This document shows, one piece after another, positions 15,773 through 62,099 of a stretch of 64,000 bases of DNA. Below the pieces are notes generated by a model, which was not told the origin of the DNA, searched no databases, and saw only the letters and a program-made list of their open reading frames with translations. The translations under genes were made by a program, and so were the position numbers. Location of the stretch: NCBI GenBank assembly GCA_034423035.1, contig DAOUJF010000025.1:64349-128348 (forward strand), given 5' to 3'. Positions within the stretch are counted from its first letter, which is position 1. Each line of letters opens with the position of its first letter. Origin of the DNA: Dehalococcoidia bacterium (GTDB taxonomy: Bacteria; Chloroflexota; Dehalococcoidia; Lucifugimonadales; VXLM01).

Positions 15773-15803
15773 GTGCAGTCACCCCTCAAAGGAATGTAGC
15801 TGC

Positions 15804-15833
15804 ATCATACGCAAGCGGGGCAATGTTTGACAA
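15804..15833 (-). promoter_or_regulatory. candidate promoter of the amidohydrolase-amidase-nuclease-aldolase operon (TTGTCA-18 nt-TATGAT)
   Basis: Minus strand reads cgcgTTGTCAaacattgccccgcttgcgTATGATgc, about 30 nt upstream of the GTG start at 15772. Confidence 0.45.
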
Positions 15834-15846
15834 CGCGGGGGCTGCT

Positions 15847-15924: not shown

Positions 15925-16110
15925 TTATGGGACATTGTGGGACGTTTCGGCGCGTCATCGTTTGGCGTGAGGGGTTACGAGATGATGAGGGGCCGTTTCT
16001 GTAACATTTCGTAACATTTTGTAATTTCACCTGTGTCGTCGTATTGGTCGAGCGGCTGATCTTTTCGGCATCTCGGGAACAAGAATAGATCATATATTCT
16101 TATCAGTCAA
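15925..16110 (-). repeat. copy A of a three-copy non-coding element: promoter + 3x (A)AATGTTAC decamers + 2x AA(C/T)GTCCC decamers
   Basis: Read on the minus strand: TTGACT-17-TATTCT, then gaaattac/aaaatgttac/gaaatgttac (16000-16030), then gaaacgtccc/acaatgtccc (15928-15947). Confidence 0.7.
16082..16110 (-). promoter_or_regulatory. sigma70-type promoter of element copy A (TTGACT-17 nt-TATTCT), spacer/-10 carries the palindrome AGAATA-N7-TATTCT
   Basis: -35 at 16105-16110 and -10 at 16082-16087 (minus strand), with exact 17-nt spacing. Confidence 0.5.
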
Positions 16111-16156: not shown

Positions 16157-16546
16157 CTACCCGCCCATGGCCGCAATACGTCGGGCCATCCAGGTGATGT
16201 ATGCCTTGCGAGTCATTCCCCGGCGACAGGCCTCGCTGTCAATGAACTCCGCAACGCCTTCATCAAGGGTCAGTCCCGCACGAACGCTCTTGCCTGAAGT
16301 CCGAATGAGCGGTATCGAAGTTAGCTGACTTCCCTTCGGAGTATCGATGGACTGGAACGCGCTGGGCTGAGCGAGCTCCTCTCCGTCCTTCTCAGCCTCA
16401 ATCGCGTAGTCTCGAAGCGCGTCTTCGGCATTGAATAGCGCCTCGTCAACCGTGTGTCCCATTGCGCCAACACCGGGTATGTCCGGGAAGACAACACCGT
16501 AGGCGCCTTCTTCGCCATCGATGAGCGCAGGATATCGAGTTGTCAT
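16157..16546 (-). CDS. hicB: HicB-family antitoxin with C-terminal ribbon-helix-helix-like segment
   Basis: YPALIDGEEGAYGVVFPDIPGVGAMGHTVDEALFNAEDALRDY is a typical HicB N-domain. Lies directly downstream of hicA. Confidence 0.8.
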   Translation of the reverse strand: MTTRYPALIDGEEGAYGVVFPDIPGVGAMGHTVDEALFNAEDALRDYAIEAEKDGEELAQPSAFQSIDTPKGSQLTSIPLIRTSGKSVRAGLTLDEGVAEFIDSEACRRGMTRKAYITWMARRIAAMGG

Positions 16547-43595: not shown

Positions 43596-43735
43596 CGCTC
43601 CTATCCCCTCTCCCGTCGTAGGCTGACAGGGGTAGGCAAAACGGAATTGTAGGGGCGATTCGCGAATCGCCCCCGCCTCTCTGTCATTCCCCCGCCACTC
43701 TGTCATTCCAAGCGAAGCGAGAGGGGCGGGAGTGT
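43596..43735. repeat. composite REP block L flanking element copy B
   Basis: ccctctcccgtcgtaggctgacaggggtaggcaaaacggaatt...ccccgcctctctgtcattcc...ctgtcattccaagcgaagcgagagg is a direct repeat of 44081-44200 (about 80 % identical by eye). Confidence 0.7.
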
Positions 43736-43777: not shown

Positions 43778-43806
43778 TTGACAAACAAGAACGCATGTAC
43801 GACACT
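43778..43806 (+). promoter_or_regulatory. sigma70-type promoter of element copy B
   Basis: TTGACA (43778-43783), 17-nt spacer, GACACT (43801-43806). A 23-nt run atttgacaaacaagaacgcatgt is identical to copy C. Confidence 0.5.
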
Positions 43807-44020
43807 GCAATTGAGAGAAATGTCTTCACCCGATGCGACAGCCCCGCAAGTTACGAAATGGTAGTTACGAAATGTTACAGAATGTTACAAAGTTCAGGGG
43901 GATTCCAAGAAAATGCGCGAGTTGCGTCTGTTCGGGGCCTGTCCGCTAAACCGAAGGGTTCGACCCTGCAGCTTCACAATAACAACGGGAATGCCCGAAA
44001 TGTCCCAGAATGTCCCACTC
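43778..44020 (+). repeat. copy B of the three-copy element
   Basis: TTGACA-17-GACACT, then AGTTAC/AGTTAC/ATGTTAC/ATGTTAC (43849-43892), then gggaatgccc/gaaatgtccc/agaatgtccc (43988-44017). Confidence 0.7.
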
Positions 44021-44080
44021 TTCCAAAGATTAGACCGGGCGCTTGTACACTCGCTCCCGCGCCGAAGGCTGACCGGCAAC

Positions 44081-44200
44081 TCCCTCTCCCGCCGAGTTGA
44101 CAGGGGTAGGCAAAACGAATTTGCAGCTATGATCCGGCCCCGCCTCTCTGTCATTCCACCGCAACCCTGTCATTCCGAGCGTAGCGAGGAATCTAAAATC
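44081..44200. repeat. composite REP block R flanking element copy B
   Basis: ccctctcccgccgagttgacaggggtaggcaaaacgaattt...ccccgcctctctgtcattcc...ctgtcattccgagcgtagcgaggaatc. Confidence 0.7.
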
Positions 44201-44290: not shown

Positions 44291-44400
44291 GTCATTCCCG
44301 CGAAAGAACGTCACCCCGTACCACGATACGGGGCGGGAATCCAATCCCCTCTCCCGTCGTGGGAGAGGGCTAGGGTGAGGGTCAGGGCTAGAGCCTGCCC
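44291..44400. repeat. REP family 3 long form + family 2
   Basis: gtcattcccgcgaaagaacgtcaccccgtaccacgatacggggcgggaatcc + cccctctcccgtcgtgggagagggctagggtgagggt. Confidence 0.7.
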
Positions 44401-54171: not shown

Positions 54172-55107
54172 ATGGTAAATCTATTTCGTAAACACATGAC
54201 AACGGAACTCTCCACCAACCATGCTGGAGGGAACACAAGAGACAACGCAAAAGGACCCGGGACCGCGCTGTACGTAGATACTGAGAATCTTCAGGGTAGC
54301 GCTCAAACACTCATAGAGAACATAGTCGAAGACTGGCCGACGGGAACGCCGCCTCCAAGGCGGTTGAACCTCTATGTTCAGGCCGACCGAGTCTCCCTCT
54401 GGGACATTTGGGCAACCGGAAGGTTCCCACAGTTGGCTGTGACGGTTCGGGGTATACAGCACTTCAGCAACAGGCAGTCCAAGAACTCTGCCGACATAGC
54501 AATTGCCATCGACGCGATTGCCGACTACGTCAGGGGCGTTGCCCAATACGTAGCCGTCATGAGTGACGACAGCGACTTCATGCCGCTGTATGCGAAACTC
54601 AAGGAGTTGAAGTCGGATCCCGTTCCCTTCCTGTGGCTGGTGACCGATCGCACGAAGACGCGGTCAACAACCATCAGGGACTACTTCCCCAACGACTACA
54701 TTCATGTTGTGCAGGCCAGAAGACCAACCCAGTCGTTTGGTGGAAGCGCGACCCAATCCAATGGTTCACGCAGGGTTCGACCTATCGAGCCAGCTGCGGC
54801 AACGGCAAGTGATGACGGCAGGCCCCGCACCGTTCGCTTGACCGAAGTGGCTGATCTTATAATCGATCAGCTTCCAACCGGGTCGTTCAGAAGTACCGAG
54901 TGCCAGCGCGTCATCAAGTCGCAGTGGCCGGGCGATCCGATGGCGAGGATGTCGAGCGTACGCTTCGGCACGGAATTCGCCAACAAGATCTGGCCGATTC
55001 TGGATGAGCGTGGAGTCGAGCTACTGAGCACCAAGCCGCGCAAGTATGGGCTGACTCAGGAAGTCAAGGACGCCCATCGAAACGGGAACGTGGCTTCGAG
55101 GCAGTAG
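54172..55107 (+). CDS. NYN (LabA-like, PIN-related) domain protein with a C-terminal OST-HTH/LOTUS-like region
   Basis: ALYVDTENL, KNSADIAIAIDAI, VAVMSDDSDFMPL acidic motifs of NYN. ATG immediately follows the acs TGA. Confidence 0.65.
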   Translation: MVNLFRKHMTTELSTNHAGGNTRDNAKGPGTALYVDTENLQGSAQTLIENIVEDWPTGTPPPRRLNLYVQADRVSLWDIWATGRFPQLAVTVRGIQHFSNRQSKNSADIAIAIDAIADYVRGVAQYVAVMSDDSDFMPLYAKLKELKSDPVPFLWLVTDRTKTRSTTIRDYFPNDYIHVVQARRPTQSFGGSATQSNGSRRVRPIEPAAATASDDGRPRTVRLTEVADLIIDQLPTGSFRSTECQRVIKSQWPGDPMARMSSVRFGTEFANKIWPILDERGVELLSTKPRKYGLTQEVKDAHRNGNVASRQ

Positions 55108-61884: not shown

Positions 61885-62099
61885 ATGGGACATTCTGGGA
61901 CAATTCGGCCTCATCTGTATAGGCGGTCGCAGAATGATGCTGGGGATTGTTGGGGTTGTCAGGTGTAATATTCCGTTGAGAGTGTAACAATTTGTAACAT
62001 GCCGTAACATTACATTCCTTGTTGTTGAGTCTCGCTAGCAACCGCTTTGGTCGTTGGTCTGCATGTTCCAAGTATCAAACATGCGTTCTTGTTTGTCAA
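61885..62099 (-). repeat. copy C of the three-copy element
   Basis: Minus strand: TTGACA-17-GATACT, then gtaatgttac/ggcatgttac/aaattgttac (61983-62013), then gaattgtccc/agaatgtccc (61886-61905). Confidence 0.7.
62071..62099 (-). promoter_or_regulatory. sigma70-type promoter of element copy C
   Basis: -35 TTGACA at 62094-62099 and -10 GATACT at 62071-62076 (minus strand), 17-nt spacer. Confidence 0.5.

Follow-up and report, generated by a model that had tools for sequence, protein, structure and literature searches.

The window analysed here, a 64,000-nucleotide stretch of a Dehalococcoidia genome, carries three copies of an element family that shares homology with the beginning of the genes of a multi-paralog HTH family, from promoter and leader to the ribosome-binding site and the first codons. 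The encoded proteins are all-helical, are approximately 150 aa long and are related to the phage small terminase (PF13022; phBC6A51/Sf6-gp1-like fold). The window copies are orphan promoter/leader/gene-start modules, and with a probability of roughly 55% their phased decamers are double-stranded DNA operators of oligomeric TerS-like paralogs. One option in the preliminary description was a set of DNA sites for a multimeric regulator that reads one helix face, and this is the reading favoured here; the candidate regulator is the TerS-like HTH family, in which the genes start inside such arrays and the recognition helix tracks the decamer core. Homology to the beginning of a coding gene had not been foreseen.

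All three copies were found at the positions and on the strands originally described. The patterns ATGTTACNNNNTGTTACA (4 overlapping matches), GTCCCANAATGTCCCA (3) and TTGACWNAYAAGAAYNNATG (3) matched within the 64-kb window only in these copies, and in 100 dinucleotide shuffles the expected number of matches was 0 for each of the three patterns. The exact 17-nt promoter spacer is present in all three copies, the 23-nt run atttgacaaacaagaacgcatgt is common to copies B and C, and the two blocks with a 10-nt period (block 1, RTTAC/ATGTTAC units; block 2, ATGTCCC type) were recovered as arrays 1 and 2 below. Pattern searches, a tandem-repeat scan and a period-10 scan gave no fourth copy in the window; AATGTCCCA at 54400 was rejected as a chance match inside a coding region. 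The features are as follows.

15928-15948, minus strand: array 2 of copy A, gaAACGTCCCAcAATGTCCCA, 2 units, TCCC core
15949-15965, minus strand: degenerate box and SD remnant of copy A, ccaaacgatgacgcgcc, by-eye homology to AACTTTACRATAACGAGG of relatives
16000-16028, minus strand: array 1 of copy A, gaAATTACaaAATGTTACgaAATGTTACa, 3 units at a 10-nt period, TTAC core
16082-16110, minus strand: promoter-like region of copy A, TTGACT-17-TATTCT (TTGACT 16110-16105, TATTCT 16087-16082)
43599-43721, plus strand: REP-like repeat of ~120 nt left of copy B, a direct repeat of 44077-44188
43778-43806, plus strand: promoter of copy B, TTGACA-17-GACACT (TTGACA 43778-43783, GACACT 43801-43806)
43807-43847, plus strand: leader of copy B, 40/41 identity to the orthologous copy in another species
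43848-43889, plus strand: array 1 of copy B, TTAC core (AAGTTAC, a 14-nt imperfect extra unit, AGTTAC, ATGTTAC, ATGTTAC)
43970-43986, plus strand: box AGCTTCACAATAAC of copy B (43970-43983, 12/14 against the family box AACTTTACAATAAC) and decayed SD position
43987-44017, plus strand: array 2 of copy B, gggAATGCCCgaAATGTCCCAgAATGTCCCA, 3 units, TCCC core, 29/29 identity in the orthologue L141
44018-44076, plus strand: decayed remnant of HTH-gene first codons in copy B, by comparison with locus L107, ending at the REP-like repeat
44077-44188, plus strand: REP-like repeat right of copy B
61886-61906, minus strand: array 2 of copy C, gaATTGTCCCAgAATGTCCCA, 2 units, TCCC core
61909-61923, minus strand: degenerate box and SD remnant of copy C, cctatacagatgagg, homology by eye
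61983-62017, minus strand: array 1 of copy C, gAATGTAATGTTACggCATGTTACaaATTGTTACa, 3-4 units, TTAC core
62071-62099, minus strand: promoter of copy C, TTGACA-17-GATACT (TTGACA 62099-62094, GATACT 62076-62071)

Further copies, whose absence had been named as a possible refutation, were found in related genomes in large numbers. The promoter 21-mer, the box and the phased decamers (A-ATG-NNNC-A, 2-4 units) occur at no fewer than 120 sites spread over some 15 related Dehalococcoidia MAGs, and a single 4.1-Mb genome holds at least 16 loci of the module. The exact promoter 21-mer was found at 26 Dehalococcoidia/Chloroflexota loci with the same layout, and the box followed by AAATG at at least 113 loci. 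Family members were defined by the promoter TTGACAAACAAGAACGCATGT (-35 plus spacer with AAGAAC-N4-GT), by arrays in which 2-4 decamers A-ATG-NNNC-A follow one another with a period of exactly 10 nt and a core that is homogeneous within the array, array 1 lying 74-96 nt from the first base of the -35, and by the box AACTTTACRATAAC plus GAGG located 21 nt upstream of the first array 2 ATG. The layout of 121 parsed elements reads promoter, 74-84 nt, array 1, ~100 nt, box, 21 nt, array 2; the modular unit is a promoter with 1-3 array modules, and modules stand in tandem in some elements. Copy B was parsed as promoter -94- TTAC -98- box -30- TCCC and copy C as promoter -89- TTAC -107- TCCC, and the combination of TTAC and TCCC arrays also occurs in L141. 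The first 21 nt of the promoter are the exact family 21-mer in copies B and C, and copy A has the degenerate form TTGACWNAYAAGAAYNNATG.

The promoter spacer has the consensus AGAAC-N4-GT(A/C)C, of which one half-site is imperfect relative to the LexA (Cheo-type) box GAAC-N4-GTTC. In the window, the spacers are GAAC-GCAT-GTAC in copy B (a near-palindrome), GAAC-GCAT-GTTT in copy C and GAAT-ATAT-GATC in copy A, the last as part of AAGAAT-N4-GATC, a diverged version of the family AAGAAC-N4-GT.C. True palindromes with the family 21-mer were found in unrelated taxa (L001, L019, L020, L029 and L186). The -10 hexamers of copies B and C are weak, and a consensus scanner called no promoter in copy B.

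Spacer sequence between the motifs had been described as non-conserved. It is indeed free among the three paralogous window copies, which have the motifs in common, but two features conserved in relatives had been overlooked, namely a short GC hairpin immediately 3' of the -10 and the box AACTTTACAATAAC followed by a GAGG Shine-Dalgarno-like motif 21 nt 5' of block 2. The box is very strongly conserved across the family; in the window it is recognisable in copy B, whose orthologue has ATTTTACAATAAC, and only degenerate remnants are left in copies A and C. In the simplest elements it lies inside the leader, ~54 nt downstream of the point where the -35 begins. The box might instead be a promoter in its own right, with TACAAT serving as the -10, but no conserved -35 was present upstream. 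The leader of copy B also includes CCGATGCGACAGCCC, a motif common to TTAC-type elements, and in TTAC-type array 1 the SD and first ATG are lost and the phased repeats are kept.

No described element with such a layout was known to the authors of the preliminary description, and this holds: an Rfam gathering search of the whole 64-kb window returned 0 matches, and none was found in the literature. The repeat family thus appears to be undescribed and was found in one group of Dehalococcoidia. In IMG/VR, the box pattern gave 6 unrelated matches, the single match to the promoter pattern was an unrelated SOS-type promoter, and just 2 distant homologues were found with the protein profile. Element copies were therefore not found to be phage-borne in IMG/VR.

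At about 30 loci found via the protein, the module supplies the promoter and 5'UTR, as well as the beginning, of an intact HTH gene of ~150 aa, and in about 16 of the box loci the box and array lie directly 5' of an intact, conserved ORF of 147-156 aa. The start codon of the HTH gene is the ATG of the second decamer, so that the ATG within the decamers is a real start codon in relatives. Many orphans carry frameshifted remnants of the HTH ORF after the array. The gene-less state is typical, most family members being orphans; a tblastn search of the window with the HTH protein gave no match, and the remnant in copy B (44018-44076) contains no intact ORF. On the annotation side, the modules yield spurious ORFs that begin MQQNAT or MSQNVP.

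The HTH protein matches Pfam HTH_Tnp_1_2 (E=1.5e-7) and PHROG terminase small subunit (E=4e-12 and 2e-11), with weak matches to excisionase models (phrog_66, 1e-4; TIGR01764, 5.5e-4, below cut-off). NCBIfam, PADLOC and PDB sequence searches with this protein returned nothing over the cut-offs. In the AF2 model the HTH is confident, helix 3 spanning residues 40-48 (xRxT[IV]xRW), whereas the model is only moderate outside it (mean pLDDT 68), and residues 1-9, which are encoded by the array, are predicted to be disordered. This disorder, like the retention of phased repeats in TTAC-type array 1 despite its lost SD and first ATG, speaks for a role of the repeats that is independent of translation. 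The best PDB folds were 2ao9 (phBC6A51, nonamer; probability 0.98-0.99) and Sf6 TerS, with weak Foldseek E values of ~0.1. Each genome has 4-8 HTH paralogs in housekeeping contexts (EEP nuclease, ADH, Ldh_2, ProRS and peptidase M1 among the neighbours of ~30 paralogs).

Homologous arrays carry about 20 cores other than TCCC (CAAC, CGAC, GCGC, GAAC, TTAC and others). Three identical cores were present in 71 of 151 arrays, against 8.3 expected. The linker triplets are position-specific (GAA/AAA, AAA/AGA, ACC/AAA) while the cores change in concert. The 4-nt core tracks the recognition helix of the HTH protein as listed below, an association that is confounded by shared ancestry.

Helix NR[TS]TIY: core CAAC
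Helix [TDN]RRT[VI]Y: core TCAC/TCCC
Helix GRQTIH: core CGAC, in 7/7 proteins
Helix GRTTIH: core GAAC
Helix PRRTI[HN]: core GCTC
Helix PLRTIQ: core GCGC-like
Helix SPRTVQ: core TCGC

The same tracking is seen among proteins that are more than 80% identical and at one orthologous locus in 9 genomes. Among the paralogs compared, no intact one with a TTAC core was found.

Taken as operators, the decamers (A-ATG-NNNC-A, 10-bp period, 2-4 units) would be bound as double-stranded DNA, with adjacent HTH domains of one oligomer contacting adjacent units on a single helix face, in a geometry like that of TerS rings or of head-to-tail filaments of the Xis/Cox/BldC type. Helix residues that do not vary (T, R, W) would recognise the invariant A-ATG...CA, the variable helix positions would recognise the variable 4-nt core, and each paralog class would therefore have its own operator. 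In the intact genes, the array sits at roughly +40 to +70 relative to the predicted start site, overlapping the SD and the ATG, which suggests auto-repression and, where arrays of two types are stacked, cross-regulation. Operators at +40 to +70 would be unusual in that they are atypical for classical repression, and the homogeneity of an array could stem from replication slippage (units x2 to x4; 14-nt indel). Each window copy consists of an SOS-box-like sigma70-type promoter, a TTAC array and a TCCC array without a gene, and may act as a regulated non-coding transcription unit and/or as an extra (decoy) binding site for the paralog of the TCCC/TCAC class and for a presumed one of the TTAC class. 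The copies would be gained and lost by duplication and deletion between flanking REP-like repeats.

In order to judge constraint on the orphans, copy B was compared with L141, an orthologous orphan in another species in which the neighbouring CDS is 86% identical at the nucleotide level. Promoter, leader and arrays agree at 129/131 positions and the rest at 149/171 (Fisher p=1.7e-4), in support of the earlier claim that selection acts on the motifs. In a second orthologue, L142, array 2 is decayed (17/29), so constraint on the orphans is not uniform; the best-kept parts there are the promoter (29/32) and array 1 (26/29).

These comparisons bear directly on the alternative that the orphans are functionless, decaying fragments of TerS-like HTH pseudogenes (promoter plus 5' end), scattered by segmental duplication and by recombination at REP-like repeats, with decamers homogenised by slippage. 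This is improbable, at about one chance in five. It would account for the frameshifted ORF remnants behind many orphan arrays, for the decay of array 2 in L142, and for a unit number that varies from x2 to x4 per array, a 14-nt unit indel separating orthologues. Neutral decay is opposed by the better preservation of promoter, leader and arrays than of spacer and flanks in copy B, and of promoter and array 1 also in L142, as well as by the window copies, which have the motifs alone in common; simple slippage would not yield position-specific linker triplets together with concerted cores.

The flanks of the copies add evidence for neutral scattering. Close relatives differ in the presence or absence of the element, and a tandem duplication was seen with REP-like direct repeats at its borders; the sequence at 43599-43622 recurs at 44340-44363, and these are the ends of a 725-nt segment that is missing from S5_317 (L143). 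All copies had been said to abut REP-type repeats, which is correct for both sides of copy B and for the upstream side of copy C but not for copy A, which has none. The neighbours are hicB and an amidohydrolase gene (copy A), genes for a thioredoxin-AhpC protein and BioY (copy B), and genes for an NHL-repeat protein and an unknown protein (copy C). Downstream of copies B and C there is no gene that they could serve, and the operon downstream of copy A has its own promoter (TTGTCA-17-TATGAT). By crude ORF-based calling, the nearest long ORF is convergent in 39 orphans and co-directional in 25, as expected of tolerated insertions; a role of the orphans as general promoters of downstream genes was ruled out on these counts. 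Derivation from a known IS or MITE, which had been named as a possible refutation, was likewise rejected: there are no inverted repeats around copy B, left ends vary by sub-family, right ends are variable rather than fixed, and the associated 150-aa protein has no catalytic domain. A link to tRNA islands was also discarded, the tRNA-like string upstream of one sub-family being another REP-like repeat and neither the window nor 7 loci yielding a tRNA or tmRNA with ARAGORN.

A more doubtful alternative is that the arrays are pac- or cos-like loading sites of TerS-like rings that serve DNA packaging, transfer or another transaction rather than transcription. The best sequence and fold matches of the protein are small terminases, phased repeats stand in or next to a terS-like gene in relatives, at the 5' end of that gene, and two arrays ~100 bp apart resemble bipartite pac sites; SPP1 has pacL and pacR within the terS gene and ahead of it. 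The number of sites, dozens in each genome, and the SOS-box-like promoter spacer would also fit. However, no terL, portal or capsid gene adjoins any of the ~30 paralogs, whose neighbours are housekeeping genes, no element copies and just the two distant protein relatives were found in IMG/VR, and 4-8 paralogs of diverged specificity are, to our knowledge, not a feature of known packaging systems.

A related and slightly less probable, speculative variant is a domesticated small-terminase family of 4-8 paralogs with re-programmed specificity, for which the orphans would be ring-loading "address labels" under SOS-like control. If so, the packaging or transfer of host DNA might, for instance, start at these labels as many chromosomal pac-like sites, or the labels might serve to organise chromosome domains or to insulate them, and such a TerS-based system would be without known counterpart.

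Least probable but for one of the alternatives is a small RNA, in which the promoter would drive transcripts of ~200 nt whose AAUGNNNC repeats (each with an AUG, and an SD before) titrate an RNA-binding protein or initiating ribosomes. Orphans conserve both the promoter and the short GC hairpin that directly follows the -10, the leader gives modest support for a hairpin (MFE -9.6 vs -7.8 kcal/mol in shuffles, p=7e-6), the arrays are predicted to be mostly unpaired, and copies B and C lack a downstream gene. Against this, whole transcripts are no stabler than shuffles (z +1.73, +0.25 and -0.19) and have no GGA-in-loop motifs, so that the CsrB/RsmZ-like sponge proposed earlier was abandoned; there is also no Rfam family match, no intrinsic terminator after copy B on its own strand in the region scanned, and no candidate RNA-binding partner was found. 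The cores differ between arrays and track the HTH helix, which points to DNA recognition.

An MraZ-type (or OmpR/PhoB-type) operator, suggested because the complement of the TCCC arrays reads TGGGACATTCTGGGACATT, with TGGGA-N5 direct repeats at a 10-nt period as in the TGGGN boxes of Pmra, is very improbable, since TGGGA occurs only in TCCC-type arrays, homologous arrays have ~20 other cores (the array 1 complement is GTAACA), no examined element lies at an mraZ/dcw promoter, and another, physically linked DNA-binding protein accounts for the arrays.

If the arrays are indeed operators of the TerS-like paralogs, helix residues would map to a 4-nt core in a fixed A-ATG...CA frame, a testable code that would have arisen by co-evolution of paralogs and operators in an uncultured lineage. 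A phage packaging fold would then have been recruited as a multi-member family of chromosomal regulators, with gene-less copies of its control region persisting under selection at dozens of sites per genome. The modules also mark promoter-like sites in Dehalococcoidia MAGs, which is relevant for annotation.

Among known systems, the SPP1/SF6 G1P pacL-pacR and lambda gpNu1/cosB R sites are similar in that a TerS-like HTH protein goes with presumed sites made of short direct repeats phased at about one helical turn; these form two groups ~100 bp apart, directly upstream of the protein's own gene and within its 5' end. The present family differs in that terL and morphogenesis genes are not nearby, that there are 4-8 chromosomal paralogs with diverged helices and matching cores, that dozens of gene-less copies each have a promoter, and that the repeat includes the start codon. 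P2 Cox, 186 Apl, lambda Xis and Streptomyces BldC are HTH proteins of small size that regulate promoters by binding to 3-6 direct repeats spaced ~10-11 bp apart, and the weak excisionase-model matches recall them; in contrast, the TerS-like protein has roughly double their length and carries long TerS-type helices for oligomerisation, and the family lacks an att site or integrase context. CsrB/RsmZ sRNAs share repeated short motifs in a promoter-driven non-coding unit, whereas the present element has no GGA motifs, hairpin presentation, Rfam match or excess folding energy, and its core varies between copies. MraZ boxes are also short direct repeats of 10-nt period in 2-4 units near a promoter, but the family arrays have a variable core, lie downstream of the promoter, include the ATG, have no dcw context and point to another cognate protein. 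Finally, Neisseria Correia elements and REP/BIME are likewise intergenic and of high copy number, often lie between convergent genes, contain promoter-like sequences and vary in presence between close relatives. Unlike these, the present family has no terminal inverted repeats that could be found and no fixed right end, and its unit is modular and homologous to the control region and start of a gene.

Three copies of the element were recovered in the window, and reading of each bore out the preliminary description: each has a TTGACW -35-like hexamer and a weak -10 exactly 17 nt apart, then a 10-nt-period (R)A(T)GTTAC array, and after that a further array built of AATGTCCC units. When the three were aligned, the promoter and decamer blocks again proved to be all that they share. 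The copies and the features beside copy A are as follows.

15925-16110, minus strand: copy A, weak -10 TATTCT
43778-44020, plus strand: copy B, weak -10 GACACT
61885-62099, minus strand: copy C, weak -10 GATACT
16157-16546, minus strand: HicB-like antitoxin gene (PF15919, E=1.3e-15), ending 47 nt upstream of copy A
15800-15835, minus strand: better sigma70-like promoter, TTGTCA-17-TATGAT, between copy A and the amidohydrolase GTG start (15772)

Three diagnostic patterns matched only these copies in the window and gave 0 matches in 100 dinucleotide-preserving shuffles; no fourth copy was found in the 64-kb window, and an Rfam search of the whole window returned no match. Given the better promoter downstream of copy A, the amidohydrolase operon need not depend on that copy. 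The hicB-element-amidohydrolase order was also observed on an independent Logan contig (L140).

Further copies sought in related genomes proved numerous. The exact 21-mer TTGACAAACAAGAACGCATGT of copies B and C was found at 30 loci in a species-representative genome collection, 26 of them belonging to Dehalococcoidia/Chloroflexota MAGs, which have several each, and the layout downstream was the same: a three-decamer first array, a ~100-nt spacer, the strongly conserved box AACTTTACRATAAC, GAGG, and a second array 21 nt after the box start. The box plus an AAATG pattern was present at 113 loci at least, nearly all in those MAGs among the matches listed, with at least 16 in one 4.1-Mb genome (OZ220720.1). 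The 121 elements parsed ran promoter, 74-84 nt, array 1, ~100 nt, box, 21 nt, array 2. Their cores (the variable 4 nt of each decamer) were GCGC, GCAC, GAAC and TTAC in array 1; in array 2 CAAC was commonest, with TCCC, CCAC, CGAC, TCAC, CCCC and others. Tandem box-plus-array modules occur (CAAC, TCCC and TCCC at a ~97-nt period in locus L107), and array-1 modules are, judging by CCGCCCACTCTCACGACAACGAGGAAATGG against CCGCCCAACTTTACAATAACGAGGAAAATG, diverged duplicates of box modules. The gene adjoining copy B has an orthologue (71-91% identical) in exactly the element-bearing MAG set, which places the window in the same clade; the window finding is a member of a lineage-specific and apparently undescribed family.

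In several genomes, many elements are immediately preceded by a second conserved repeat, GAGAGACACAGAGAGGGGGTCTTCGCAATTCAACTCACGGAGACTGAACAGTTAC, 30-90 nt before the -35 (loci L013, L024, L027, L028, L043, L094, L122, L123, L171-L173 and L175); it was not seen beside the window copies. In one sub-family (L011, L021, L015, L090, L106, L098 and L002) an extra 45-nt left arm, AGAGCCATCACCAACCCTCACTCCT..GAAGAGCCTCTCCCGA, is conserved, and its left end is sharp in different contexts, hinting that a defined unit was duplicated or mobilised. A tRNA-like string further upstream of this sub-family is not a tRNA according to ARAGORN.

The element is homologous to the control region and start of a family of TerS-like (small terminase-like) HTH paralogs. 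In ~16 pattern-derived loci an intact conserved ORF of 147-152 aa directly follows box and array, its start ATG being the second decamer, and a protein-based search yielded 30 such genes, 4-8 per genome. The remaining copies carry frameshifted or truncated ORF remnants (e.g., ..LAIPHL.S..S.SE.. in L046, L056, L058 and L107). Since no homologue of the HTH protein is encoded in the window, its three copies are orphans. Family-wide, the three ATGs of the array occupy all three reading frames; the HTH ORF uses the second, and the SD-proximal first is out of frame with it. Four CCAC-type copies in OZ220720.1 (L039, L042, L048 and L101) encode the same protein, ..AIPHLV.AKSA.ETA.LIGVNRKTG(E/Q)PAP.., truncated at one shared point inside the recognition helix, a pattern suggestive of pseudogene duplication or of a REP insertion that later spread.

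The HTH protein matched Pfam HTH_Tnp_1_2 (E=1.5e-7) and, over residues 4-117, PHROG terminase small subunit families (E=4e-12 and 2e-11); nothing significant was obtained against NCBIfam, PADLOC or PDB sequences, and its 101 homologues are unnamed and all ~150 aa. An AlphaFold model (26 sequences) was all-helical with a confident HTH (pLDDT 87-93 for residues 11-60), helix 3 at residues 40-48 and residues 1-9 disordered. Its top PDB fold matches were the nonameric phBC6A51 protein 2ao9 (probability 0.98-0.99, E ~0.1) and the Sf6 small terminase, with TetR-like folds at lower probability.

Each decamer consists of A-ATG-NNNC-A and two freer bases, with a 4-nt core that is homogeneous within an array: three identical cores were present in 71 of 151 arrays against 8.3 expected (permutation; maximum 17 in 2000), and mean core distance was 0.79 within arrays versus 1.95 between them. 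Linker triplets stay position-specific, which argues against pure slippage. Core sequence varies with the recognition helix, G-V-x-x-x-T-[IV]-x-R-W, an association confounded by common descent; core-linked changes fall at helix positions 1-3 and 6, and helix/core changes were seen at the orthologous nuclease-ADH locus and between proteins sharing >80% identity.

Recognition helix of the HTH protein and core of its array
NR[TS]TIY: CAAC
NRKTIY: CCAC/TCCC mixtures
[TDN]RRT[VI]Y: TCAC/TCCC
GRQTIH: CGAC (7/7 proteins)
GRTTIH: GAAC
PRRTI[HN]: GCTC
PLRTIQ: GCGC-like
SPRTVQ: TCGC
HRTTIN: CATC/CTTC

The motif is independent of translation, because in TTAC-type array-1 modules the SD (GAGG to CCCG) and first ATG are gone and the phased repeats are kept, the out-of-frame third ATG is ACG in 7/31 intact genes, and the array-encoded residues of the HTH protein are disordered in the AlphaFold model. 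We favour, at a probability of roughly 0.55, the reading that the arrays are operators of oligomeric TerS-like proteins with paralog-specific cores, the window copies being orphan operator-promoter modules. With a 10-bp period successive sites lie on one helix face, an arrangement that would suit adjacent HTH domains in a ring or filament, as in TerS rings and in Xis, Cox and BldC filaments.

That the orphans are neutral relics is unlikely, given partial constraint while they are present. Copy B was compared with its orthologue L141 in OZ244816.1, where the neighbouring CDS is 86% identical in nucleotides.

Identity of copy B to L141 by segment
Promoter: 31/32
Leader: 40/41
Array 1: 29/29, plus a 14-nt unit indel
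Spacer: 69/78
Box: 18/21
Array 2: 29/29
Downstream: 35/40

Motifs were identical at 129/131 positions and the rest at 149/171 (p=1.7e-4), and by this alignment promoter, leader and arrays appear partially constrained. In L142 (OY759598.1) promoter (29/32) and array 1 (26/29) persist and array 2 has decayed (17/29). The entire 725-nt segment 43619-44343 is absent from the closest relative, S5_317 (L143), its ends coinciding with direct REP-like repeats, and is tandemly duplicated in L141 (595-nt duplication).

43599-43721, 44077-44188 and 44340-44363 (also 43670-43709): direct ~120-nt REP-like repeats flanking copy B

These repeats explain both the indel and the duplication, so orphans come and go through recombination between the repeats on either side of them. 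The repeat reads CTCTCCCGTCG..TGACAGGGGTAGGCAAAACG..CCGCCTCTCTGTCATTCC..CTGTCATTCCGAGCGWAGCGAGGAATC and contains a 19-nt tandem duplication; in the related MAGs many intergenic regions are filled by its relatives, which have inserted even into the leaders of intact HTH genes. A role for orphans as general promoters of neighbours was rejected, as 39 of the nearest downstream long ORFs were convergent and 25 co-directional (crude calling).

Pac-like loading sites, to which the small-terminase likeness might point, are a quite improbable account of the arrays. HTH genes occupy ordinary chromosomal contexts, with ProRS, peptidase M1 or a hydrolase close to some of them; among those examined none adjoined a terL, portal or capsid gene, and IMG/VR held no element copies and only two distant relatives of the HTH protein. 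A locus conserved in nine genomes (L153, L154, L155, L159, L166, L167, L169, L175 and L177) comprises a divergent EEP-family nuclease gene (PF03372), the HTH gene, ADH and Ldh_2. The nuclease and HTH genes share an intergenic region carrying an SOS-box-like promoter, and so may be co-regulated.

Promoter spacers in the window hold a near-palindrome, GAAC-N4-GT(A/T)C (43784-43800 and 62077-62093), and the conserved family spacer motif AAGAAC-N4-GT(A/C)C resembles the Gram-positive (Cheo)-type LexA box, GAAC-N4-GTTC. The same 21-mer with the perfect palindrome and TATAAT-like -10s was found at L001, L019, L020, L029 and L186. These loci come from a phage (IMG/VR) contig and from unrelated Firmicutes and Chloroflexota MAGs, namely a Lachnospiraceae, an Anaerolineaceae and two other Chloroflexota lineages. 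Similar ORFs (..YYADNARKLHQMVDKIL.. and ..YYKDNAKKLRDMVDRIL..) lie downstream of the 21-mer in L001 and L186. That the family is under SOS control is put forward as a lead only.

Members of the family commonly carry a short GC hairpin (GCGG..CCGC) directly behind the -10; its stability modestly exceeds that of shuffles (-9.6 versus -7.8 kcal/mol, p=7e-6), which is compatible with genuine transcription from this promoter. The sponge sRNA proposed in the preliminary description is very unlikely: predicted transcripts of the three copies were not unusually structured (z +1.73, +0.25 and -0.19), a scan of the copy B region found no downstream terminator on its own strand, and a sponge leaves the tracking of core by DNA-binding helix unexplained. 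The MraZ/OmpR reading of the arrays deserves almost no credence.

If the operator reading is true, the arrays are of the same kind as known phased direct-repeat operators of oligomeric HTH proteins, with unusual traits: a start codon inside the putative operator, a domesticated small terminase family, and dozens of promoter-bearing orphan copies.
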